Notes: a model not told the origin generated them from the letters alone. DNA of 32,000 nt from Cylindrospermopsis raciborskii Cr2010 (GCF_003367075.2 NZ_CP065936.1:2280001-2312000), one strand, 5' to 3'; counted from the first letter of the stretch, positions 1,164 to 28,595 are shown. Made by a program: numbers and translations.

Positions 1164-2873
1164 TTATTCAGCTATAACAGAGGAAAGAAAAGAACCTGCT
1201 CTGGGTAAAATAGCTGCTACACTTTCCCGAGAGAACTCGGTCAACATATTGAGAGCTACGTTGAGTAAACGATTGGGGGGTAAATCATCTTTGACTAACT
1301 CCCATAATCTTTGTACCTCATCAGTATGCAAACGGTCGTCTTCAGTCAACGCTAAAACCAATTGACGACGCAAGAATTTACCCTCTTCAGAAAGTAAATA
1401 CTGTAAACCCATTTTCGCCGTGGGAACCATATCAAACTCCCCATCTGTACGAGCAATGGAAATCAAATTTTCCAACCTTTGCCATTGGAACTTACCATTT
1501 TTAAATAGCACGTTCAATAACCGTCTTCTTAACGCAGGTGATTCACCAGTGAGTAGACGACGTGCTATGTATGGATAGCCAACCTCCACAATTTTAAAAT
1601 TGCGGTTAAGACTCAACGCAATCCCTTCCTGGGTTACCAGGGAGCGAATAATCAAAGCAAATTTGGCAGGAACTCGGAAGGGGTAATCATACATTAATTC
1701 CGAAAATTCATCGGTGATAGTTTTAAAGTTAAAATCCCCAACATTCTTACCAATGGCATTCCCTAAAACCGCTTCTAACGCTGGAATAATAGGACTAATA
1801 TTTGTCCCGGGGGCTAAAAAACCCAAACTGACAAAATCTTCCGCTAGATCGGCGTAATCCTTATTCACAAGATGCACCAGCGCATCCACTAAAGTTTCCT
1901 TAGTAGTTTCCTCCAACTGATCCATCATGCCAAAGTCAATGTAAGCCATGCGACCATCATCCACCGCAAACAAATTACCCGGATGGGGATCCGCATGGAA
2001 AAAGCCATATTCTAATAGCTGTTGTAAACCAGAAGTAACCCCAATTTGAATCATACCTTCAGGATTTAAACCAGCTTGACGAATCCTTTCGGTATCCGTG
2101 AGTTTATAACCATTGATCCATTCCAGGGTTAAAACTCGATGACTACTATAACTCCAGTAAATAACTGGTACTTTTACCTGGGGGTTGTTGCGAAAATTGT
2201 GGGCGAATTTCTCTGCATTACGCCCTTCATTCATGTAGTCTATTTCTTCAAATAATTTGGTGCCAAATTCATCCACAATTAGTGTTAGGTCATGACCAAG
2301 ATTGAGAGGTAACCAGGGACTTAACCAAGTAGCTGCCCATCGCATTAAGTACAGGTCTTTTGTGATGATTGGTCTCAGGTTAGGGCGTTGTACTTTTACA
2401 GCGATTTCTTCACCTGTCACTAAAGTTCCCCTATATACCTGACCCAAACTAGCTGCTGCTACTGGTTGGGGTGATAGTTTGGTAAATATCTCATCAATGG
2501 ACCTATTGATCTCAGTTTCTATAATACTTAGGGCTATATCGTGGTCAAACGGTGGTAACTGGTCTTGCAGTTTTACCAGTTCCTCCAAAAAGTCCTTACG
2601 GATTAAGTCTGGTCGAGTGGATAGAGCTTGACCAACTTTGATGAATGTTGGACCTAGGTTGGTTAACAGTTTTCGCAACTGGGTGGCTCTTTTTCCCCTA
2701 TTTTGCTCAACCTGATTTCGCCATTCATCCCACTGAAGGCTGAATATAAAGACCGCAAAAGAAAATAGGATTCTCAACAGTCTTGCTAAAGCTAACCAGG
2801 GACGGTAACGATAATAACTTGCGATCGCTTCTGGATTGTACTGCTTTAATTGAGCAGGTTGGTAATGACCCAC
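1164..2873 (-). CDS. ABC1/UbiB (AarF) family atypical protein kinase
   Basis: 569 aa with a GTG start. It carries the ABC1 signature blocks LGPTFIKVGQALSTRPD, AAASLGQVY, EIAVKVQRP, HADPHPGNL and IDFGMM. Confidence 0.9.
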   Translation of the reverse strand: MGHYQPAQLKQYNPEAIASYYRYRPWLALARLLRILFSFAVFIFSLQWDEWRNQVEQNRGKRATQLRKLLTNLGPTFIKVGQALSTRPDLIRKDFLEELVKLQDQLPPFDHDIALSIIETEINRSIDEIFTKLSPQPVAAASLGQVYRGTLVTGEEIAVKVQRPNLRPIITKDLYLMRWAATWLSPWLPLNLGHDLTLIVDEFGTKLFEEIDYMNEGRNAEKFAHNFRNNPQVKVPVIYWSYSSHRVLTLEWINGYKLTDTERIRQAGLNPEGMIQIGVTSGLQQLLEYGFFHADPHPGNLFAVDDGRMAYIDFGMMDQLEETTKETLVDALVHLVNKDYADLAEDFVSLGFLAPGTNISPIIPALEAVLGNAIGKNVGDFNFKTITDEFSELMYDYPFRVPAKFALIIRSLVTQEGIALSLNRNFKIVEVGYPYIARRLLTGESPALRRRLLNVLFKNGKFQWQRLENLISIARTDGEFDMVPTAKMGLQYLLSEEGKFLRRQLVLALTEDDRLHTDEVQRLWELVKDDLPPNRLLNVALNMLTEFSRESVAAILPRAGSFLSSVIAE

Positions 2874-3153
2874 GTCTTTGCCTCTACAACTGGGAATTTG
2901 AGCTTTTATTTACTAACTGTTTACGTGGGTATATTGCCCCTTTTCATGGGATTTAGATATCCCATAAAATAATTGCCAATCACCCATTTCCAGGCAATAT
3001 TAGCCATCATAGGGCGGTTTTTATTACCTAGGTTAGTTTATCTTTTTGTTAATTATACTTTATAAAACTACAAACTTTGGTCTGATAGCAAGGGTATTTT
3101 ATCTTTTCTTAACTATTACCTGATTTTACCTTACGTGTAGACGTAGCCATCTG

Positions 3154-5454
3154 TTAAGAGCGATAAGCACCATAAACTAGCACAGGCACTCTTTTATATG
3201 CAGGTGTACCGCTATTTATATCAATTTCTGCTTTAAATAACAGATTTGCCTCTGGATAAAACATAAATGCCACGCCTTGACGAATTCTACCACAAATAAC
3301 TTCAATGCTATTTAGTTCCCCCGCATTACCTTTAACTGTGACCCGATCATTTTCTTTGAATCCTGCTGCGGCAATATCCTCAGCATTCATCAAAATACAA
3401 TGGCGATGGGGCATATTTCTATACTTATCTTCATCACGATATACCACGGTATTATGCTGACCATAACTGCGTCCAGTTCCCAGTATTAAAACAGTTCCCG
3501 GATGATTTTCTGGAACTCCAAAATAGGATTTATTTGGTAAAGATAATTGTGGTAGGGTTGTGACAAACATTTGTGCTTTACCATCGGGAGTATTAAATTT
3601 TGGTTCTGAAAAGACTCGCCCATCAATGGTAAATTCTTCTTGAGTTTGGTCAATCTGCCCAATTTTTTGATAACCGGGAATGGTTTTGGCGATAAGTTCT
3701 CTGATATAGATTGGATCTTGCAATTTACGCCAATTGATTGGACCTTCTTGATGGGAAATATGGGCAATTTCTGTAATTAACTCTACTTCTGAAATTAAAT
3801 CAGACTCCCGGGAAGATAGATGTGTTCTACCTGCATCATTTAATCGCACAAAATTGTTTCCCGATTCCGTAGTGGTCTGGTGGGGATTTTCAAATCTGTT
3901 AAAAACTGGTAAGATTAGGGTCTGAACCTTTGCCAATCCATGAAAATGTCCTAGATTGGGTTTTGTCCCCACATAAAATATAGTTTCTATTTCAGATAAT
4001 GCCTTTTTAGCCTGTTGTAAATCTGGATTAGCTGCATATAAATTGCCTCCCAAACAAAACAGGGTATCTACCCGACCTTTTTCTGCTGCTGTGATTAAAT
4101 CACGGGTATGATAGCCAGGGGTATTATTGAGGGGTTTTCCCAGCAATTGGGATAGTGCTTCCCTAACTTCTTCCCGCAAGTTTACAGTTACACCCATAGA
4201 GCCAAATCCTTGAACATTGGAATGGCCCCGAATGGGCATTGTTCCCGCTCCGATTTTACCAGCATTACCTGTCATCAAGGCAGTATTTGCAATGCTGAAT
4301 ATGTTCTCGACTGCGTTCTTATGTTGGGTTATACCCATTGCCCAGGCAAAAACTACGTTTTTTGATTTACCAATTAAATAAGCTGCTGCACTAATTTCTT
4401 CCTGAGATAATCCGCAGGTTTTAGTAATTTCTTCCCAAGATGTGTGTTGGGCATAATCTAGGATTTCTTGCCAATTTTTTGTGTGAGATTGTAGGTAGTT
4501 ATTTTGAATTAAATTTTGCTCAATTAGGGATTTTTGCAAACCAACAAATAGGGCAACATCACTACCAGGAATAGGCTGTAAATATAAAGTTGATATATCC
4601 GAACCACCAGTGAGTAGTAATTTGATGGGAAAAGCAGGAGAACCAAATTTGACCAAGCCAACTTCTATCTGGGGATTGATAATAATTATCTTACCTCCCC
4701 TGTCCCGTAATTTGATTAACTCGTTCATTAATCTTGGATGATTAGCAGGCGCATTAGATCCAACTAAAACTATGCAGTCACTGTGTTTTAAGCTCTCTAA
4801 ACTGACCATGGAAGTGCCAGAACCAAAAACTTGCTTTAACCCCACGGTTGAAGGAGCGTGACACAAATCTGAACAGTCAGCTAAATTATTACTCCCCAGC
4901 GATCGCATGAATAATTGCAACAGGTAAGCTGCTTCGTTAGAAGAACGCCCAGAGCTGTAACTGGCAATTCTCTGTGGTGTGATACTGAAAGATTTTCGAG
5001 CAATTTGATAAACCTCTGACCAGCTGATAGGTTGATAGTGGGATGCTCCAGATCTGAGAATAAGTGGATAGGTTAATCTACCCAATTTGTCGCATTGTTG
5101 GGAAGTAAGTTGTTGTAATTCGTTAATAGTGTACTGCTCAAAAAATTCTAGTTTGATTCCCGGTTGCAATTCAGCAGCGATCGCCTCTACACTTTTAGCA
5201 CAACGTTGTAAGTATTCTCCCGACTCATTAACAAATCCGCCTTTTTGTCCACCAGTTCCCCAGGCGCAGGATAAACAGGCACTTTTATGATTCAGGGTTT
5301 GCCATAATTTAGGTCCTTGGGGGGTGAGGGTTTTTTCTACCCAGTATTGAATTACAGGTATTCCTCCTCCGGAGGGAGATTTTGAATTTGCGGTTAAATC
5401 ATCCATAAAATCTAACTCAATTTCTTGACCTAAGTACCTTATAGTATAGGACAT
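3154..5454 (-). CDS. FdhF/YdeP-family molybdopterin oxidoreductase
   Basis: 766 aa. The N-terminal CxxC...GGQKGGF block (SACLSCAWGTGGQKGGFVNE) and the overall molybdopterin-oxidoreductase layout are typical of the YdeP subgroup. Confidence 0.8.
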   Translation of the reverse strand: MSYTIRYLGQEIELDFMDDLTANSKSPSGGGIPVIQYWVEKTLTPQGPKLWQTLNHKSACLSCAWGTGGQKGGFVNESGEYLQRCAKSVEAIAAELQPGIKLEFFEQYTINELQQLTSQQCDKLGRLTYPLILRSGASHYQPISWSEVYQIARKSFSITPQRIASYSSGRSSNEAAYLLQLFMRSLGSNNLADCSDLCHAPSTVGLKQVFGSGTSMVSLESLKHSDCIVLVGSNAPANHPRLMNELIKLRDRGGKIIIINPQIEVGLVKFGSPAFPIKLLLTGGSDISTLYLQPIPGSDVALFVGLQKSLIEQNLIQNNYLQSHTKNWQEILDYAQHTSWEEITKTCGLSQEEISAAAYLIGKSKNVVFAWAMGITQHKNAVENIFSIANTALMTGNAGKIGAGTMPIRGHSNVQGFGSMGVTVNLREEVREALSQLLGKPLNNTPGYHTRDLITAAEKGRVDTLFCLGGNLYAANPDLQQAKKALSEIETIFYVGTKPNLGHFHGLAKVQTLILPVFNRFENPHQTTTESGNNFVRLNDAGRTHLSSRESDLISEVELITEIAHISHQEGPINWRKLQDPIYIRELIAKTIPGYQKIGQIDQTQEEFTIDGRVFSEPKFNTPDGKAQMFVTTLPQLSLPNKSYFGVPENHPGTVLILGTGRSYGQHNTVVYRDEDKYRNMPHRHCILMNAEDIAAAGFKENDRVTVKGNAGELNSIEVICGRIRQGVAFMFYPEANLLFKAEIDINSGTPAYKRVPVLVYGAYRS

Positions 5455-7686: not shown

Positions 7687-8000
7687 TAAAACCAGATCCC
7701 CAGTATTTTTATTACGGAATATTTAAAAATAATAATTGAACAGTAATATATATCTAAACTTACCACTTTTAGGAAATTAATGCCATTCTCGAGAAAGACG
7801 CTGTAATAGCATATTCAAAGATATAATTACTTTACGCCAACACCATTTGAAAATATAATGAAACATTATGTTATATTGGTGGTTTAAACTCATATTGGTC
7901 TTACCAGGCAAATTAGGCAAATGAAAATTAAAAAAATGACCATTATTTACACATATTTGTCTAAGTATATTTTGTTTACAGTACAAAAGTAAAATTTTCA

Positions 8001-8468
8001 ATGAGTGACAAAAACGAAGGTTACAAGATTATTAGTGATAATAGACAAGCCCGTTATTTATATGAAATCCTAGAAACCTACGAAGCAGGAATTCAGCTCA
8101 CTGGTACGGAAGTGAAATCAATACGAGCGGGTAAAGTCAACTTACAGGATGGTTATGCTTTGTTGCGTGATGGAGAAGCATGGCTAATAAACGCTCATAT
8201 TTCCCCTTACACAGCCAGTGGACAATATTTCAATCATGAGCCCAGACGCACCCGAAAATTGCTTTTACACGGATTAGAAATTCGTAAGTTGATAGGTAAA
8301 GTGGAACAACAAGGTTTAACCTTGATTCCATTAAAAATGTACTTCAAAAGGGGCTGGGTAAAGATCAGCATTGGTTTATGCAGAGGGAAGAAAGTCCATG
8401 ATAAACGGGAAGATTTAAAGCGTCGTCAAGATCAGCGTGATATTCAGCGGGCGATGAAGAATTACTAA
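8001..8468 (+). CDS. smpB: SsrA-binding protein
   Basis: 155 aa with the typical SmpB sequence (NRQARYLYEILETYEAGIQLTGTEVKSIR...RTRKLLLH). No tmRNA gene was recognised nearby. Confidence 0.95.
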   Translation: MSDKNEGYKIISDNRQARYLYEILETYEAGIQLTGTEVKSIRAGKVNLQDGYALLRDGEAWLINAHISPYTASGQYFNHEPRRTRKLLLHGLEIRKLIGKVEQQGLTLIPLKMYFKRGWVKISIGLCRGKKVHDKREDLKRRQDQRDIQRAMKNY

Positions 8469-8507
8469 TTGTACTAATTGAGTGGATAGTTTTCCACCTT
8501 GTTTTTC

Positions 8508-8969
8508 TTATTGCCAATCTTGACTAGTATCGCACATAAATCCATGGGAAATCGCTTGTTCAAACTGGTAGGGACAAACTTGGGGAAAAGTTCTCAATGG
8601 TAGGTTAGTTTCTCGTAGAGCTAAATCAACTCCCCCTTCAAAAGCATCCTCCAAAGCGTAGGGGATACGGGATTTTAAGGTGGGATTACGTTGAAAATGA
8701 CGATGGATAGCACGGCGCTGTTCTCTAATAGTTAGAAACCAACTGCGACAACGATTCTCCGGTTGGTATTCCCACTTGAGCAGGTGTCCCAACAAAACCG
8801 TAAGACGACTAACTAGTTCCCGATATTCCTGTCTTCCCAACCCTTCTAACTCCGTCTGCAAATTTTCCCAGTCCAGTTGAGATACTTGTCTTTGGGAAAT
8901 TGCTCTGAGTTGCCATTGAATCCAACCATAAAAGTCTTGTTCGTATTTAGGAGGAACTTCAGAGTTCAT
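8508..8969 (-). CDS. DUF29 family protein
   Basis: 153 aa. The YEQDFYGWIQWQ...LDWENLQTELEGLGRQEYRELVSRLTVLLGHLLKWEYQP pattern is typical of cyanobacterial DUF29 proteins. Confidence 0.8.
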   Translation of the reverse strand: MNSEVPPKYEQDFYGWIQWQLRAISQRQVSQLDWENLQTELEGLGRQEYRELVSRLTVLLGHLLKWEYQPENRCRSWFLTIREQRRAIHRHFQRNPTLKSRIPYALEDAFEGGVDLALRETNLPLRTFPQVCPYQFEQAISHGFMCDTSQDWQ

Positions 8970-8987
8970 AAGTAGTTATGCTCCGTC

Positions 8988-10379
8988 CTAATTTATTTCT
9001 CCACGGTTTTCGGTCAAGGGATTCCAGTAGCTAGCCACTATGGCCACCATTAACCACCAAAGAGTATTCACTTCTGGACGATACCATACAGTATCTACAG
9101 TACCATGACCTAGCATACCAAATATAGCCGCGATCGCTCCTATTAACCAAAGTCCATCCTGATTTCTCACCTTGAGAAACTGGCGCATTTGAACCAGTCC
9201 TGAGTTGATAATGACAATAATCAACCAGATAAAACAAGACAAACCAACAAAACCACTTTCTACAGCTGTTTCTAGGAAAATTGAATAGGCACTCAAAGCA
9301 CTATAGCGGGGACGTTGGTAAAGGGGATAGATTTTATTAAAAGAATTATGTCCTGGACCAATACCAATAATTGGGCGATCGCGAATCATTTCCAAAACTG
9401 CATCCCAGACATTACGGCGAAAATTATTACTACTATCTTGACGGTCAGCAAAAATACTAACCAATCGCAATCTAACTGGCTCAACAAAAATTACTGCTAG
9501 CAGAAGAGCGCCGATAAAAGTTCCCAATATAATTGGCAATAACCAAGTGCGCCAAAATAGAGACAGTTGTACACTCCACCAATAAGCTAACAACACCATA
9601 GCAGCCAAAATAGCGATTAGCATACCAATCCAGCCACCGCGACTAAAAGTTAAAACCAAACAAGAAGCGTTTGCGGCTAACATAATTACAGCTAGAGACT
9701 TTCTAATCCAACCGTGCCAGGCGAAAATAGCCACTAAACTTAAAGCCACTGCGGGGATCAGATACCCAGCCAATAAGTTCGGATTACCTAGATAACTGTA
9801 GACCCTAGTGGTTTTAGATAGAGTTGATTCTGGATCAACCCAGGTAGCCAAGGCCTTAGCCCCGAAAAACCATTGTCGAATGCCATATACACTAACAAGG
9901 AGGGATACATGTAAGTACAGGGTAATTAACCAAGAGCGAACGCGGTGAATTCTCAGGGATCTAGCACACAGAGCAAAAAGTAGTAAATAGAGTGTTAAAG
10001 TTACCAAATCACTAAAAGCTGCCTTTTTGACAGGGGATAAGCCTGCTGAAACCACAGCAATAAACCAATAGAGCAGAACTACCAGATGAATTGGGGTAAA
10101 GGAAATTTTAGATAGATTAGTGTCATCTGATATAGTTAAGATTAACCATAATGCTGCAGCTGCTAGTAGCAATATTCCAGTTAAAGTGCTAGACACAAAG
10201 GGTGACAATCCGTAAATTAGGCTGATTAAAGCAGCAGAGAGCATATCTCCCCATTGCATCAGCCAGCTGGTTTGGCGCCAAGGACTTACAATACCCACCA
10301 ACCTATGTAGATAGCTAGTATTGACATATTCTTTTAGGGGTAAGGAGGATAGTGTAAATCTTTCCCAGAGTAAATTCAT
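8988..10379 (-). CDS. ictB: IctB-family protein (O-antigen-ligase-like polytopic membrane protein, putative inorganic carbon transport related)
   Basis: The ORF track start at 10397 is TTG, so I use the ATG at 10379 (MNLLWERFTL...). The N-terminal YLHRLVG...W...S...W and SPFVSS blocks and the ~460 aa multi-TM layout match my recollection of IctB. Confidence 0.75.
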   Translation of the reverse strand: MNLLWERFTLSSLPLKEYVNTSYLHRLVGIVSPWRQTSWLMQWGDMLSAALISLIYGLSPFVSSTLTGILLLAAAALWLILTISDDTNLSKISFTPIHLVVLLYWFIAVVSAGLSPVKKAAFSDLVTLTLYLLLFALCARSLRIHRVRSWLITLYLHVSLLVSVYGIRQWFFGAKALATWVDPESTLSKTTRVYSYLGNPNLLAGYLIPAVALSLVAIFAWHGWIRKSLAVIMLAANASCLVLTFSRGGWIGMLIAILAAMVLLAYWWSVQLSLFWRTWLLPIILGTFIGALLLAVIFVEPVRLRLVSIFADRQDSSNNFRRNVWDAVLEMIRDRPIIGIGPGHNSFNKIYPLYQRPRYSALSAYSIFLETAVESGFVGLSCFIWLIIVIINSGLVQMRQFLKVRNQDGLWLIGAIAAIFGMLGHGTVDTVWYRPEVNTLWWLMVAIVASYWNPLTENRGEIN

Positions 10380-14344: not shown

Positions 14345-14479
14345 AAGGTGAAAACTCAATAAGGAATATAATACCTTTATTGATAGGCTAAGAAGTTTGT
14401 CATTAGAGAAGCAAACTAGTTAAAATAATTGGGAAGTGGGGAGTTTCAATTTAATCCCAAAACTAACAAGGATAAAAAT

Positions 14480-15016
14480 ATGGCTAGACCTGGTGGAAAC
14501 CCTGAACTCAAAAAATATCAATTTTCTAGTGAAGGGGAACCTAATAATGCTCAACTTCGCTTGTGGGTTACTAAATCTCTTTTGACTAGGCTTAACAATA
14601 CCTTCGGAGCGAATAGAAATAAGTGGATTAGAGAAACTCTAACCAAAGCATTAGATGAAATTGATGAAAATCATATGAAACATGATATGAAGAACTTTGA
14701 GGAAGAAACAAAGATGCCACTATTAACTAATATCGAGTTAAAAGGAATAGAAACTGGTAAGGAAATTGGTAAGGAAATTGGCAAGGAAATTGGCACATTA
14801 GAAAAAGCTCATGATTATGTGAAACTGGTGTTGAAAACCCGATTGGGTGACATACCAGAGACAATTGCCAAAGGGGTGGACACAATATCAGTATTACCAA
14901 TTTTGGATGAGCTACTAAAGTTGGCAATCAAAGTTGATTGTTTTGAAGATTTTCACCAATCCTTATTAAAATTATCTCCCAAAAAGTTTGAGTCAAATGA
15001 GTCGGATAAGAGCTAA
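14480..15016 (+). CDS. Chimeric protein: ribbon-helix-helix-like N-terminus fused to the C-terminal (DUF4351-like) module of the downstream Rpn-like genes
   Basis: The ORF track start at 14429 is TTG. I use the ATG at 14480, which has AAGGA 7 nt upstream. Residues ~20-60 (AQLRLWVTKSLLTRLNNTFGANRNKWIRETLTKALDE) fit a beta-strand/helix/helix RHH pattern. From KNFEEETKMPLL onward the sequence is the repeat-unit C-terminal module, nearly identical at nucleotide level to 15690-16001. Confidence 0.7.
   Translation: MARPGGNPELKKYQFSSEGEPNNAQLRLWVTKSLLTRLNNTFGANRNKWIRETLTKALDEIDENHMKHDMKNFEEETKMPLLTNIELKGIETGKEIGKEIGKEIGTLEKAHDYVKLVLKTRLGDIPETIAKGVDTISVLPILDELLKLAIKVDCFEDFHQSLLKLSPKKFESNESDKS
14756..14791 (+). 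repeat. 12-bp in-frame tandem repeat GG(T/C)AAGGAAATT x3, encoding (GKEI)3
   Basis: Counted directly. The third-position pattern of the Gly codon is T-T-C. Confidence 0.95.
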
Positions 15017-16001
15017 TTATGACGAACCATGGAAAGAAGCACTAACGGAGTATTTTGAACAATTTCTGCTTTTCTTCTTTCCGGGAATTCACCAATTAAT
15101 TGATTGGGGAAAAACACCAGAGTCTCTAGATAAAGAACTGCAAAGAATTACAGCCTTATCAAAAACGAAAAGGCGCTTTGCAGATAAATTGTATAAAGTC
15201 TGGTTAGTTAGTGGGGAAGAAATCTGGGTGTTGATTCACATTGAAATTCAAAGTCAATATGAGGAAGAATTCCAAAAGAGGATGTATATTTATAATTACC
15301 GTGCTTTTGACCTATATCAAAAACCGGTGATTAGTCTAGCAATTTTGGGAGATGAAAAAGCTGATTGGAAACCAGAAAGTTATAATTATAGCTTAGGAGG
15401 GTGTGAGGTAAGTCTGAAATTTCCCGTGGTGAAACTACTCAGCTATGAGGAAAAATGGTCAGAACTGGAAGAAAGTAATAATCCTTTTGCTATAGTGGTA
15501 ATGGCACATCTAAAAACAAAAGCAACTAAGGGAAAACCAGAGGAGAGAGAAAAATGGAAATGGATTTTAATCCGAGGACTATATAACGGGGGGTTAGATA
15601 GAAACCAGATAGTTCGATTGCTGGGAATCATTGATACAATGATGAAGCTACCTAAAAAATCACAGGAAAGTTTGGAGAATAAGATAAAGAACTTTGAAGA
15701 GGAAACAAAGATGCCACTGTTAACTAATATCGAGTTAAAAGGAATAGAAACTGGTAAGGAAATTGGCAAGGAAATTGGCACATTAGAAAAAGCTCATGAT
15801 TATGTGAAACTGGTGTTGAAAACCCGATTGGGTGACATACCAGAGACAATTGCCAAAGGGGTGGACACAATATCAGTATTACCAATTTTGGATGAGCTAC
15901 TAAAGTTGGCAATCAAAGTTGATTGTTTTGAAGATTTTCACCAATCCTTATTAAAATTATCTCCCAAAAAGTTTGAGTCAAATGAGTCGGATAAGAGCTA
16001 A
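14997..16001 (+). CDS. Rpn/YhgA-like PD-(D/E)XK nuclease family protein (putative transposase family) with DUF4351-like C-terminal domain, copy 1
   Basis: The ORF track start at 14988 is TTG. The ATG at 14997 gives MSRIRANYDEPWKEALTEYFEQFLLFFFP... The core FADKLYKVW...WVLIHIEIQSQ...RMYIYNY matches the D...ExQ nuclease core of the YhgA/Rpn (Transposase_31-like) family. The C-terminal (GKEI)n plus LVLKTRLGDIPE...L..LLKLAI..D.FEDF resembles DUF4351. The ATG lies 20 nt inside the upstream ORF. Confidence 0.75.
   Translation: MSRIRANYDEPWKEALTEYFEQFLLFFFPGIHQLIDWGKTPESLDKELQRITALSKTKRRFADKLYKVWLVSGEEIWVLIHIEIQSQYEEEFQKRMYIYNYRAFDLYQKPVISLAILGDEKADWKPESYNYSLGGCEVSLKFPVVKLLSYEEKWSELEESNNPFAIVVMAHLKTKATKGKPEEREKWKWILIRGLYNGGLDRNQIVRLLGIIDTMMKLPKKSQESLENKIKNFEEETKMPLLTNIELKGIETGKEIGKEIGTLEKAHDYVKLVLKTRLGDIPETIAKGVDTISVLPILDELLKLAIKVDCFEDFHQSLLKLSPKKFESNESDKS
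15753..15776 (+). repeat. 12-bp in-frame tandem repeat x2, encoding (GKEI)2
   Basis: Counted directly. The pattern is T-C. Confidence 0.95.
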
Positions 16002-17046
16002 TTATGACGAACCATGGAAAGAAGCACTAACGGAGTATTTTGAACAATTTCTGCTTTTCTTCTTTCCGGGAATTCACCAATTAATTGATTGGGGAAAAAC
16101 ACCAGAGTCTCTAGATAAAGAACTGCAAAGAATTACAGCCTTATCAAAAACGAAAAGGCGCTTTGCAGATAAATTGTATAAAGTCTGGTTAGTTAGTGGG
16201 GAAGAAATCTGGGTGTTGATTCACATTGAAATTCAAAGTCAATATGAGGAAGAATTCCAAAAGAGGATGTATATTTATAATTACCGTGCTTTTGACCTAT
16301 ATCAAAAACCGGTGATTAGTCTAGCAATTTTGGGAGATGAAAAAGCTGATTGGAAACCAGAAAGTTATAATTATAGCTTAGGAGGGTGTGAGGTAAGTCT
16401 GAAATTTCCCGTGGTGAAACTACTCAGCTATGAGGAAAAATGGTCAGAACTGGAAGAAAGTAATAATCCTTTTGCTATAGTGGTAATGGCACATCTAAAA
16501 ACAAAAGCAACTAAGGGAAAACCAGAGGAGAGAGAAAAATGGAAATGGATTTTAATCCGAGGACTATATAACGGGGGGTTAGATAGAAACCAGATAGTTC
16601 GATTGCTGGGAATCATTGATACAATGATGAAGCTACCTAAAAAATCACAGGAAAGTTTGGAGAATAAGATAAAGAACTTTGAAGAGGAAACAAAGATGCC
16701 ACTGTTAACTAATATCGAGTTAAAAGGAATAGAAACTGGTAAGGAAATTGGTAAGGAAATTGGTAAGGAAATTGGCAAGGAAATTGGTAAGGAAATTGGC
16801 AAGGAAATTGGCAAGGAAATTGGCACATTAGAAAAAGCTCATGATTATGTGAAACTGGTGTTGAAAACCCGATTGGGTGACATACCAGAGACAATTGCCA
16901 AAGGGGTGGACACAATATCAGTATTACCAATTTTGGATGAGCTACTAAAGTTGGCAATCAAAGTTGATTGTTTTGAAGATTTTCACCAATCCTTATTAAA
17001 ATTATCTCCCAAAAAGTTTGAGTCAAATGAGTCGGATAAGAGCTAA
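15982..17046 (+). CDS. Rpn/YhgA-like PD-(D/E)XK nuclease family protein, copy 2
   Basis: Protein identical to copy 1 except that it has 7 rather than 2 GKEI units. It shows the same 20-nt start/stop overlap with copy 1. Confidence 0.75.
   Translation: MSRIRANYDEPWKEALTEYFEQFLLFFFPGIHQLIDWGKTPESLDKELQRITALSKTKRRFADKLYKVWLVSGEEIWVLIHIEIQSQYEEEFQKRMYIYNYRAFDLYQKPVISLAILGDEKADWKPESYNYSLGGCEVSLKFPVVKLLSYEEKWSELEESNNPFAIVVMAHLKTKATKGKPEEREKWKWILIRGLYNGGLDRNQIVRLLGIIDTMMKLPKKSQESLENKIKNFEEETKMPLLTNIELKGIETGKEIGKEIGKEIGKEIGKEIGKEIGKEIGTLEKAHDYVKLVLKTRLGDIPETIAKGVDTISVLPILDELLKLAIKVDCFEDFHQSLLKLSPKKFESNESDKS
16738..16821 (+). repeat. 12-bp in-frame tandem repeat x7, encoding (GKEI)7
   Basis: Counted directly. 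The pattern is T-T-T-C-T-C-C. Confidence 0.95.
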
Positions 17047-18055
17047 TTATGACGAACCATGGAAAGAAGCACTAACGGAGTATTTTGAACAATTTCTGCT
17101 TTTCTTCTTTCCGGGAATTCACCAATTAATTGATTGGGGAAAAACACCAGAGTCTCTAGATAAAGAACTGCAAAGAATTACAGCCTTATCAAAAACGAAA
17201 AGGCGCTTTGCAGATAAATTGTATAAAGTCTGGTTAGTTAGTGGGGAAGAAATCTGGGTGTTGATTCACATTGAAATTCAAAGTCAATATGAGGAAGAAT
17301 TCCAAAAGAGGATGTATATTTATAATTACCGTGCTTTTGACCTATATCAAAAACCGGTGATTAGTCTAGCAATTTTGGGAGATGAAAAAGCTGATTGGAA
17401 ACCAGAAAGTTATAATTATAGCTTAGGAGGGTGTGAGGTAAGTCTGAAATTTCCCGTGGTGAAACTACTCAGCTATGAGGAAAAATGGTCAGAACTGGAA
17501 GAAAGTAATAATCCTTTTGCTATAGTGATAATGGCACATCTAAAAACAAAAGCAACTAGGGGGAAACCAGGGGAGAGAGAAAAATGGAAATGGATTTTAA
17601 TCCGAGGACTATATAACGGGGGGTTAGATAAAAACCAGATAGTTAGATTGCTGGGAATCATTGATACAATGATGACGCTACCTAAAAAATCACAGGAAAG
17701 TTTGGAGAATAAGATAAAGAGCTTTGAGGAGGAAACAAAAATGCCACTATTAACTAATATCGAGTTAAAAGGAATAGAAACTGGTAAGGAAATTGGTAAG
17801 GAAATTGGCAAGGAAATTGGCAAGGAAATTGGCACATTAGAAAAAGCTCATGATTATGTGAAACTGGTGTTGAAAACCCGATTAGGTGACATACCAGAGA
17901 CAATTGCCAAAGAGGTAGACACAATATCAGTATTACCAATTTTGGATGAGCTACTAAAGTTGGCAATCAAAGTTGATTGTTTTGAAGATTTTCACCAATC
18001 CTTATTAAAATTATCTCCCAAAAAGTTTGAGTCAAATAAGTCGGATAAAAGCTAA
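17027..18055 (+). CDS. Rpn/YhgA-like PD-(D/E)XK nuclease family protein, copy 3 (diverged C-terminal half)
   Basis: The first ~500 nt are identical to copies 1 and 2. From 17528 onward there are 8 amino-acid substitutions (V->I, K->R, E->G, R->K, K->T, N->S, G->E, E->K) and 4 GKEI units. Confidence 0.75.
   Translation: MSRIRANYDEPWKEALTEYFEQFLLFFFPGIHQLIDWGKTPESLDKELQRITALSKTKRRFADKLYKVWLVSGEEIWVLIHIEIQSQYEEEFQKRMYIYNYRAFDLYQKPVISLAILGDEKADWKPESYNYSLGGCEVSLKFPVVKLLSYEEKWSELEESNNPFAIVIMAHLKTKATRGKPGEREKWKWILIRGLYNGGLDKNQIVRLLGIIDTMMTLPKKSQESLENKIKSFEEETKMPLLTNIELKGIETGKEIGKEIGKEIGKEIGTLEKAHDYVKLVLKTRLGDIPETIAKEVDTISVLPILDELLKLAIKVDCFEDFHQSLLKLSPKKFESNKSDKS
17783..17830 (+). repeat. 12-bp in-frame tandem repeat x4, encoding (GKEI)4
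   Basis: Counted directly. The pattern is T-T-C-C. Confidence 0.95.
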
Positions 18056-18095
18056 TTATAATAAGCCATGGAAAGAAGCACTAACCCAATATTAG
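18036..18095 (+). pseudogene. Decayed 5' stub of a fourth Rpn-like copy
   Basis: The position equivalent to the start codon reads ATA instead of ATG. The next 19 codons (ISRIKANYNKPWKEALTQY) parallel MSRIRANYDEPWKEALTEY, then a TAG follows at 18093-18095 and homology is lost. Confidence 0.8.
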
Positions 18096-18104
18096 GAGGT
18101 AGAA

Positions 18105-19730: not shown

Positions 19731-20321
19731 ATGAATCAGTTAGCGATACCCTGTCTACTATTTCGCAGTGGAACATCCCGTGGACCATTTTTTTTGTCTG
19801 GAGATCTACCTGATGACCATACCACCCGGGACAAAATAATTTTGGCAACTATGGGTTCACCAGATGAAAGACAAATAGATGGTATAGGGGGTGCAACAAC
19901 ATTAACTAGTAAGGTTGTGATTTTCTCTCCATCTCATCACGATTGGGCAGATATAGATTTTCTTTTTGGACAGGTTAGCATTAATCAGAATTTGATTGAC
20001 TGGAGCCCATCCTGTGGTAACATGACCGCCGCAGTTGCTCATGCTGCTATTAAAAGAGGTTTGGTCTCAGCGTTAGATCCCATAACCAAGGTGAAAATTC
20101 GCAACTTAAACACCAATTCATTAGTTGAAACTGTAGTACAAACTCCCCAATCTGAAATTATGTATGATGGTAACACGTCTATTGACGGAGTACCAGGAGC
20201 AGCAGCACCAGTTGTGATGAATTTTATGGAGGTTGTGGGATCTAAAACCGGTCAGTTGTTACCAACGGGCCATTGTCGGGAAGAAATCGAGGGAATTGAG
20301 GTTACCTGTCAGGAATATTAG
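19731..20321 (+). pseudogene. PrpF / 4-oxalomesaconate tautomerase family gene, truncated to about the N-terminal half
   Basis: 196 aa. IPCLLFRSGTSRGPFFL...MGSPDERQIDGIGGATTLTSKVVI...SPSCGNM match PrpF-family N-terminal blocks. Family members as I recall them are roughly twice this length. The ORF ends at a TAG at 20319-20321, exactly where permease homology begins. Confidence 0.7.
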
Positions 20322-21478
20322 GAGCTTGTAATAGTGTTAATCTAGCTCAACTGGCTGTTAGCCATCCGGTTAGTGGTGGTATTTATGAATATGGTTATAA
20401 ATACTTAACTCCTTGGTTAGGTTTTACAGGAGGTTGGATCTATCTTCTAAGTAAAACTGCTGTAGCCGCCACAGCGGCTTTGGGATTTTCTGGTTATCTT
20501 TTAAACAATATTGGTCTTGCTGATGCAGGTATTTTAATCCCCGTAGCGGAAATAGCTGTAGTTATTATTACGTTGATTGTGTTTGGTGGTATGCGCAGTT
20601 CCCAGATATCAACGATTGTAGTGGTCTTAATCACTATGGCTTCTTTACTGGGTTTAATTACTGCAGGTCTATTCTTCTGCTTTTCCCATGGTTGGGGAAA
20701 ATTAACATTTTCGGGAATAAACTCTTATCAGGGAGCAACTAGTTTCTTGCAATCGGTAGCTCTGATGTTTGTTTCTTATAATGGTGCTGCTCGGATTTCT
20801 ATGGTCAGCGAAGAAATTGTTGACCCTAAAAAAAGTATACCAAGGGCAATTATTTTCACCGTGGTGACAACAATGGTTCTGTACATTGGTGTTTCACTGG
20901 TTAGTTTAGGTTCCATTGGGGCAGAATCATTTGCTGCTGCGACAAGAACAAACGCTGCTCCATTAAAGGCTGTAGCTGATAGTTTTGGTATTCCTTTAGT
21001 CTCTAACCTATTGGCTTTAGGTGCAATTACTTCCATGTTAAGTATATTGCTAACAACTGTTTTAGGCGTTTCTCGATTACTTTTAGCCATGGGAAGAAGG
21101 GGAGATATGCCTAAATTGTTTGCCAAACTGAACACTGCAGGAACAACACCAGAATTTGCCGTTATCTTTGTGGGTATTGCAATTGCGGTTTTAGTATTAA
21201 TTGGTGATGTAAGGGTAACATGGTCTTTTGGCACTTTTGGTGCACTATACCGCAGTTTTATTACCAGTTTGTCAGCATTACAAATTGGGGATCAAGAAAG
21301 ATTATATCCAAAGTGGATATCTTGGTTTTCTTTGTGCAGTTCAGTAGTGTTAGCCTTCTGTATTGAATGGTATTATTGGACAATTGGTTTAGGATTAGTC
21401 ATTGTGGGATTAATCTGGCGTTTTATATTCCGTCAGCTTTATACCTCGGAGAATATTCAGTTAATAACCAAGGACTAA
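20300..21478 (+). pseudogene. APC-superfamily amino acid permease lacking its 5' end and start codon
   Basis: The reading frame is open from 20300 and the ORF track calls only 20480 (TTG). My upstream translation, ...ACNSVNLAQLAVSHPVSGGIYEYGYKYLTPWLGFTGGWIYLL, is the conserved (A)ELA..P.SGG.Y.Y block that normally follows about 50 or more N-terminal residues including TM1. There is no ATG or GTG in frame before 20480. Confidence 0.7.
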
Positions 21479-28535: not shown

Positions 28536-28595
28536 AGTTTTTTTTAGTTTTTTTTAATTTTTTTTAATTTTCCTTAATTTTTTTTAATTTTTCCC
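28536..28595. promoter_or_regulatory. Six consecutive 10-bp units A(A/G)T8 (phased A/T tracts), predicted intrinsically bent DNA in the divergent psbD / 28672 intergenic region
   Basis: AG/AA dinucleotides fall at 28536, 28546, 28556, 28566, 28576 and 28586. Each is followed by T8, with one unit reading ttttcctt and the last run shortened to T5. That gives an exact 10-bp period over 60 bp. Confidence 0.7.

Follow-up and report, generated by a model that had tools for sequence, protein, structure and literature searches.

The closest described systems to the locus treated here are the Rpn nucleases. In the five rpn genes of Escherichia coli an internal start yields a small antitoxin that blocks the toxic full-length nuclease (PMC10400941). 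The first helix of the small protein carries a four-residue repeat that begins 8 to 20 residues beyond the internal Met and in which one residue is hydrophobic and the other three are charged or glycine; the repeats are predicted to lengthen this helix and differ in number among strains of a single species (PMC10400941). One extra KGIE unit in either the small protein or the long form of RpnC abolishes neutralization unless both carry it. Arrays of rpn genes arise by tandem duplication, and some rpn genes are adjoined by stand-alone small copies (DUF4351), which are homologues of the Rpn small protein present as separate genes (PMC10400941). Here, we describe an array of Rpn-like genes in a stretch of 32,000 nucleotides from Cylindrospermopsis raciborskii Cr2010 (GCF_003367075.2; NZ_CP065936.1:2280001-2312000), which was analysed as a whole and is referred to as the window. 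Each module of the array contains an in-frame 12-bp repeat encoding (GKEI)n, with a copy number of its own. We consider it likely, largely by analogy, that the genes encode a distant Rpn-family toxin together with an internal-start antitoxin, and that the number of repeats in the helix sets their pairing, which would insulate the paralogues from each other.

The array genes share with E. coli Rpn (RpnA-E and RpnP2) an N-terminal D...ExQ nuclease core followed by a small helical C-terminal domain, as well as a conserved internal start with a ribosome-binding site, here recognized from sequence alone. The four-residue repeat lies in the first helix in both; in the array, (GKEI)n begins 14 residues beyond the internal Met. 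Its number is strain-variable in both; here it ranges from 1 to 9 units, with single-unit steps at orthologous positions. Tandem arrays, with extra stand-alone small-protein copies beside the full-length genes, are also common to the two. Every sequence-level feature reported for Rpn (PMC10400941) can be recognized in the array. Unlike E. coli Rpn, the window protein is very divergent and is linked to that family only via intermediates and profile comparison. Each of the three intact window genes overlaps the end of the preceding gene by 20 nucleotides (nt), head to tail; two neighbours among them are identical save for the number of repeats, with 14 substitutions separating the third; the stand-alone small copy is found upstream, as part of a fusion with an unrelated protein of 70 residues; and the setting is not a defence island. 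The phenomenon is a known one, a cyanobacterial version of the Rpn four-residue repeat described in 2023 (Zhong et al., PNAS, PMC10400941). A literature search found no paper that deals with this cyanobacterial clade or with tandem paralogues differing in repeat number. The novelty is modest and consists of a cyanobacterial clade missed by curated models and of two tandem genes that differ only in repeat number.

The repeat tracts and the gene array

The tandem array occupies approximately 14687-18100 on the + strand of the window, with a tract at the equivalent position in each module (Table 1). All four tracts are built from one 12-base unit, GG(T/C)AAGGAAATT, and are in frame within + strand open reading frames (ORFs), giving the product (GKEI)n. 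An initial annotation of this DNA had reported 3, 2, 7 and 4 units with the GGT/GGC orders TTC, TC, TTTCTCC and TTCC; pattern parsing and Tandem Repeats Finder returned the same numbers at the same coordinates, and the orders were recovered identically by parsing. A pattern of two consecutive units had 12 matches in the window, all inside the four tracts, and none in 100 dinucleotide-preserving shuffles of the window (a chance expectation of zero). Minus-strand ORFs that run across the tracts (PISLPISL...) were taken as by-products of the repeat.

The initial annotation had also stated that the reading frame is always kept. This held for all four tracts of the window and for every tract parsed in other C. 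raciborskii loci. A phase-variable on/off contingency locus was considered and was rejected because the 12-bp unit is a multiple of three. The repeat resembles contingency loci that change by slipped-strand mispairing in being a perfect short tandem repeat within a gene, the copy number of which changes fast between close strains. It differs from them in that the protein changes in length and no on/off frameshift results.

The first ORF of the array consists of an N-terminal part of approximately 70 residues, of no known function, fused to a C-terminal module, and has no nuclease domain. This first module is therefore an orphan, small-antitoxin-like copy. It is followed by three full-length genes; in gene 1, a PD-(D/E)XK-type domain is N-terminal and a helical domain is C-terminal. 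The array units measure 985, 1045 and 1009 bp, and these differences are due entirely to the tracts. The 961-bp stretches between tracts 1 and 2 and between tracts 2 and 3 are 100% identical; the number of repeats (2 versus 7) is therefore the sole difference between full-length genes 1 and 2. In the third inter-tract stretch, 11 substitutions are confined to the 250 bp that precede the gene 3 tract, and three more follow this tract within gene 3, making 14 in total relative to genes 1 and 2. The view of the initial annotation that copies 1 and 2 differ only in the tract is correct for full-length genes 1 and 2, but not for C-terminal modules 1 and 2, which also differ at three synonymous sites directly upstream of the tract.

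At the left end of the array, homology starts approximately 30 nt upstream of the internal ATG at 14714. At the right boundary, directly before a VWA gene, lies the decayed 5' remnant of a further gene copy, in which TTATGACGAACC has become TTATAATAAGCC. The N-terminal segment of the first ORF (14480-14713; MARPGGNPELKKYQF...) matched no Pfam family; its homologues are free-standing proteins of 67 to 92 residues, which in Dolichospermum are found among ArdA/Rad52-like/SNase genes, a mobile-element setting. Its in-frame fusion to the C-terminal module was kept in all strains checked. The idea that this part is a dedicated regulator of the system was dropped because its free-standing homologues sit in a mobile-element setting unrelated to Rpn.

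Table 1. Features of the array and its surroundings in the window (positions counted from the first nucleotide of the window).
Feature	Position	Strand	Basis or signal
Best sigma-70-like match upstream of the array, TTGTCA-18-TAAAAT, 10/12	14397-14426	+	Consensus match only
First array ORF, 178 residues from ATG, two-part in-frame fusion	14480-15016	+	ORF calling, homology
Predicted small ORF, orphan module, 100 residues	14714-15016	+	Internal ATG, GAGGA 14699-14703
12-bp tract, 3 units (TTC), (GKEI)3, orphan first module	14756-14791	+	Pattern parsing, Tandem Repeats Finder
Full-length Rpn-like gene 1, 334 residues, 2 units, D63/H81/E83/Q85	14997-16001	+	ORF, homology, model
Predicted internal-start small protein, gene 1, 96 residues	15711-16001	+	GAGGA 15699-15703, 7 nt before ATG
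12-bp tract, 2 units (TC), full-length gene 1	15753-15776	+	Pattern parsing, Tandem Repeats Finder
Full-length Rpn-like gene 2, 354 residues, 7 units, identical to gene 1 outside the tract	15982-17046	+	ORF, alignment
Predicted internal-start small protein, gene 2, 116 residues	16696-17046	+	GAGGA 16684-16688
12-bp tract, 7 units (TTTCTCC), full-length gene 2	16738-16821	+	Pattern parsing, Tandem Repeats Finder
Full-length Rpn-like gene 3, 342 residues, 4 units	17027-18055	+	ORF, alignment
Predicted internal-start small protein, gene 3, 104 residues	17741-18055	+	GGAGGA 17727-17732
12-bp tract, 4 units (TTCC), full-length gene 3	17783-17830	+	Pattern parsing, Tandem Repeats Finder
Decayed 5' remnant of a further gene copy, start ATG -> ATA	18036-18100	+	Alignment

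Putative internal start and predicted helix

The internal start was surveyed in 76 genes, taken from the window and from more than 60 cyanobacterial loci of many genera. The Met that precedes the repeat by 14 residues is encoded by ATG in 75 of the 76 genes and by GTG in one, and GAGGA or GGAGG is present 8 to 13 nt upstream in all 76. The Glu codon at this ribosome-binding site is almost always GAG, against a background in which GAA makes up 74% of the Glu codons in these genes. Such conservation of a synonymous site across proteins that are only 50 to 70% identical is as expected of a ribosome-binding site. When the sequence was read for a comparable ribosome-binding signal at the full-length start, none was seen. 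The orphan module retains precisely the internal-start signal and the small ORF, at the left boundary of the array. In gene 3, the GGAGGA lies within the codons GAG GAG GAA (17726-17734).

Each unit of the array also contains a weak sigma-70-like match, TTGATA-18-AAAAAT (9/12), at 15631-15660, 16616-16645 and 17661-17690, approximately 50 nt upstream of the internal ATG. These are consensus matches only, in AT-rich DNA, and were given no weight. In the E. coli rpn genes, internal promoters drive a short transcript.

The full-length protein with two units was modelled with a predicted local distance difference test (pLDDT) value of 93.5 and a predicted template-modelling score (pTM) of 0.81. 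The repeat lies inside a continuous helix (residues 244-278), which is the first helix after the internal Met, connects the nuclease domain to the C-terminal bundle and is followed by three short helices. In the model of the seven-unit small protein of gene 2, the first helix spans residues 6-60 (55 residues) and is exactly 20 residues longer. The initial annotation had described the repeat as a spacer between the nuclease core and the helical domain; both models instead place it within one continuous helix and therefore point to a helix extender rather than a flexible spacer. By standard helix geometry, each unit would add four helical residues, or about 6 Å.

Relationship to the Rpn/YhgA-like nucleases

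The family assignment was made through homologues and profile comparison because direct Pfam, NCBIfam and PADLOC searches gave nothing above threshold. The closest proteins to the array products are from C. raciborskii itself, and relatives that are 50 to 70% identical are common in Microcystis, Dolichospermum, Anabaena and other cyanobacteria; some of these (approximately 65% identical) are labelled Rpn family, YhgA-like or RpnC/YadD by the source records. An exact look-up of the 354-residue protein of gene 2 gave no record. Homologue searches gave 1040 word-index matches and, in an exhaustive search, 5605 representative clusters at 50% identity. In an alignment of 111 homologues, D63 does not vary, and conservation is at least 90% at H81, E83 and Q85. 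DUF4351 (PF14261) was matched in the C-terminal part by 26 of the 111 homologues (best E 1.1e-19) and the YhgA-like family PF04754 by 12 (best E 3.6e-07), all of which have E <= 1e-56 to the window protein. Using hhalign, the D...IEhQ...RM catalytic core of the family profile was aligned with that of E. coli RpnC (E 2.8e-4) and the profile core with RpnA (E 0.013). The C-terminal profile was in register with the helix of the RpnC small protein that bears the KGIE repeat (MMTLAQWFEEKGIEKGIQQG...), with a probability of 85% and E 6.5e-6. The orphan first module is of the same kind as the stand-alone small DUF4351 proteins, from which it is set apart by the subthreshold score of the window's own C-terminal module against PF14261. 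We conclude that the array genes, as far as homologues and profiles can place them, form a divergent branch of the Rpn superfamily in cyanobacteria. The Rpn-type reading put forward in the initial annotation is in keeping with the DUF4351 and YhgA-like matches of the homologues, the RpnC profile alignments and the internal start with its Shine-Dalgarno sequence.

Five of the 111 homologues matched Pfam Yae1_N through their four-residue glycine repeats. Like the GX3 (deca-GX3) motif of Yae1/Lto1, the repeat places a glycine at each fourth position of a helix. The GX3 motif serves helix-helix pairing and is not known to vary in length. Yae1/Lto1 is, unlike the array proteins, a eukaryotic iron-sulfur (Fe-S) adaptor, and the resemblance is one of motif only; the Yae1_N matches suggest a shared helix-pairing geometry rather than homology.

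A number of results weigh against the assignment or against a toxin/antitoxin role. The whole window proteins had no Pfam match at E <= 0.01: the score against PF04754 was 15.8 bits (E 0.011), below the cut-off of 21, and that against TIGR01784 was 16.7 bits (E 0.0049), below the cut-off of 52.1. The C-terminal module had no significant match to DUF4351, and its profile was not significantly aligned with the RpnA small protein by hhalign. Foldseek searches of the PDB with the full-length and C-terminal models gave nothing significant and did not recover 7TH0, the structure of RpnA-S (PMC10400941); the weak top matches of the full model were PD-(D/E)XK nucleases, below significance, and the C-terminal model gave none. 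Sequence searches of the PDB, with single sequences and with profiles, returned only low-complexity or spurious matches and no 7TH0. PADLOC had no match for the array genes or their neighbours. The neighbours encode a cytochrome bd oxidase, a membrane protein, a VWA protein, PrpF, a permease and chlorophyll synthase; they are housekeeping genes and the setting is not a defence island, although location in such islands is a tendency of the family and no strict requirement. Finally, several array copies in other strains are disrupted, which fits partial decay as well as function.

Repeat number among strains and its possible role

Other C. raciborskii assemblies yielded the equivalent locus, flanked on one side by the cytochrome bd genes and the gene for a 361-residue membrane protein and on the other by the VWA gene. 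With units given in array order, the orphan always as the first module and x denoting a disrupted gene, the arrays read 3-2-7-4 (window), 3-5-2-4-x7-6 (VHLJ01), 3-5-2-4-x4 (CP091284), 7-6-2-9-x3-x1-7-5-x4 (CP073250), 9-6-2-9-3-1-7-5-x3 (JBPFSD01), 8-6-2-9-3-1-7-x5-x3 (G7; CP195152) and 8-4 (JAGWYQ01). Between 2 and 9 modules are present per array and between 1 and 9 units per tract. Orphan modules of one lineage carry 7, 8, 8 and 9 units and those of another carry 3, and the module adjoining the VWA gene has 1, 2, 4 or 6 units depending on the strain. Independent expansion and contraction of the tracts, as proposed in the initial annotation, is borne out by these two positions; tracts of fixed length across strains, the contrary outcome that it had named, were not what the other assemblies contained.

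In three related strains the orphan tract has 7, 8 or 9 units and reads TCCCTCT, TCCCTCTC and TCCCCTCTC, respectively. The 7- and 9-unit forms can be explained from the 8-unit form by the loss of the last unit and the duplication of one C unit. The flanks of JBPFSD01 and G7 (9 and 8 orphan units) are 99.98% identical, with two differences in 11.6 kb, and those of the window and CP091284 are also 99.98% identical although the arrays differ; CP073250, with the 7-unit orphan, is approximately 98.4% identical over the 2.9 kb compared. With flanks near-identical but arrays differing, the turnover of tracts and modules must therefore be much faster than point substitution. The wobble patterns served as barcodes. 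TTTCTCC is common to the window and VHLJ01, TTCC stands beside the VWA gene in four assemblies (window, CP091284, CP073250 and JAGWYQ01), and the run 6-2-9-3-1-7-5 is common to G7 and JBPFSD01 and is also present in CP073250 with its 3- and 1-unit genes disrupted.

Draft assemblies break at the locus, with contigs ending inside the array. In G7, an insertion sequence (DDE_Tnp_1; positions 2269-3468 of locus L001) separates the array from the cytochrome bd genes. Most of the array is missing from LYXA01, where its place is taken by an ISL3 transposase (7831-9051 of locus L005) and unrelated genes and a single truncated module with one unit remains. The array of JAZGLX010000001 contains many short fragmentary gene calls and only four recognizable tracts, a picture that stems either from heavy decay or from frameshifts in a noisy long-read assembly.

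The survey of homologues that the initial annotation had suggested found four-residue glycine repeats at the equivalent site across cyanobacteria. Relatives in Microcystis, Dolichospermum, Snowella, Crocosphaera and Synechocystis have (GKEI)n with 0 to 8 units. The runs of 8 units are reached in Microcystis, where adjacent paralogues have 1 and 8, or 3 and 2, units. At the repeat site, more distant members carry up to 14 units of the type (EQGL), (EGRQ), (GIQQ) or (GRAE/GKAE). Two tandem paralogues of Anabaena sp. FACHB-1237 have an equal unit number.

If the array genes work as in E. coli, each would probably give two products: a full-length nuclease, the putative toxin, and a small C-terminal protein of 96 to 116 residues, the putative antitoxin, translated from the conserved internal ATG with its own ribosome-binding site. 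The repeat would lengthen the long first helix of the C-terminal domain by four residues per unit. Gain or loss of a single unit within a tract would most simply come about by slipped-strand mispairing between perfect 12-mers, and unequal recombination between gene units of approximately 1 kb would reshuffle, delete and duplicate whole modules. By homology with E. coli RpnC we infer, in line with the initial annotation, that the repeat number could set toxin/antitoxin pairing in this clade too. Helix length would then decide which small protein silences which long protein, and paralogues with differing numbers would be insulated. Toxicity of the long form, its neutralization by the small one and a role in phage defence would all be expected by the same analogy.

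The intact full-length genes of each C. raciborskii genome examined all have different unit numbers ({2,7,4}, {5,2,4,6}, {5,2,4}, {6,2,9,7,5}, {6,2,9,3,1,7,5} and {6,2,9,3,1,7}), and wherever a unit number is repeated within a genome, a disrupted gene or a nuclease-less orphan module is involved. The distinct numbers fit insulated pairs, as a hint: under a uniform model the chance of seven distinct values out of nine is approximately 0.04, which is statistically weak for insulation, and the strains compared represent only about two independent lineages. Preferential loss of identical neighbours by recombination, or assembly collapse, could also leave distinct numbers. We therefore put forward only tentatively the further possibility that the array represents a set of toxin/antitoxin pairs, length-coded and insulated from one another, in which near-identical paralogues are orthogonal solely by GKEI number. 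Slippage and unequal crossing-over would keep producing new 'addresses' in such a set.

The tracts might instead be a neutral minisatellite, a mutation-prone repeat in a length-tolerant helix with no effect on pairing or activity, in a partly decaying selfish or duplicated cluster. The disruption of many modules in other strains, the gain and loss of whole genes between nearly identical strains, a locus outside a defence context with no PADLOC match and the equal numbers in the Anabaena paralogues would all suit this explanation. We nevertheless regard it as unlikely, given that four-residue glycine repeats with differing unit sequences are kept at the exact site over thousands of clusters, that the repeat is modelled with high confidence as an ordered helix, that one added unit abolished neutralization in E. 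coli RpnC (PMC10400941) and that the intact full-length genes within each genome all differ in number. Mis-assembly of the repeated region as the source of the array and its tract lengths deserves almost no credence. Contigs of draft assemblies do end inside the array, and one long contig (JAZGLX010000001) has many fragmentary genes, but the tract patterns recur in independent assemblies that include complete genomes (TTTCTCC, TTCC and 6-2-9-3-1-7-5) and the differences are all of whole 12-bp units.

Helix length could also act as a molecular ruler that sets the distance or rotation of nuclease subunits or DNA-binding elements and thereby alters the DNA target or the cleavage spacing. The model for this is provided by the TAEL repeats in HsdS of EcoR124I and EcoR124II, likewise an in-frame 12-bp, four-residue helix repeat, in which two versus three copies alter specificity via helix length. 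TAEL repeats differ from those of the array in setting DNA target spacing and in belonging to another protein family, without toxin/antitoxin pairing. The helix that joins the nuclease domain and the C-terminal bundle in the full-length model would be suitably placed for a ruler, and Zhong et al. draw the EcoR124 analogy and mention helix-turn-helix (HTH)-like features of the small protein (PMC10400941). We consider a ruler quite improbable, however: no DNA-binding motif was detected here, the only experiment on Rpn repeats affected neutralization and not target choice (PMC10400941), and the repeat is also present in the orphan small module, which has no nuclease domain.

Two neighbouring ORFs of the window are shorter than their counterparts. 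The PrpF-like ORF (19731-20321) has 196 residues, compared with 360 in the C. raciborskii loci L005 (LYXA01), L008 and L009, and the amino-acid permease ORF (20480-21478) has 332 residues, compared with 442 in the same three loci. Similarly shortened gene calls are found in loci L004 and L013 (196 residues for the PrpF-like protein; 387 and 390 residues for the permease). This looks like lineage-specific deletion or pseudogenization. Elsewhere in the window (28538-28592), a T-rich 10-bp tandem repeat, TTTTTTTTAA, is present in 5.5 copies and is unrelated to the GKEI repeat.

Pairing of a toxin with its antitoxin through helix length, if it applies here, would extend the Rpn 'gene within a gene' arrangement, with its length-variable pairing helix, to a large cyanobacterial clade (5605 clusters). 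The array offers a natural experiment, with adjacent genes of 2 and 7 units that are otherwise identical and strains with near-identical flanks that are one unit apart. In bloom-forming Cylindrospermopsis, the locus could be used to measure both the expansion and contraction of the dodecamer and the purpose of its variation, which were left open by the earlier work (PMC10400941). Its value lies in being a clean natural system for a mechanistic question rather than in a new principle.

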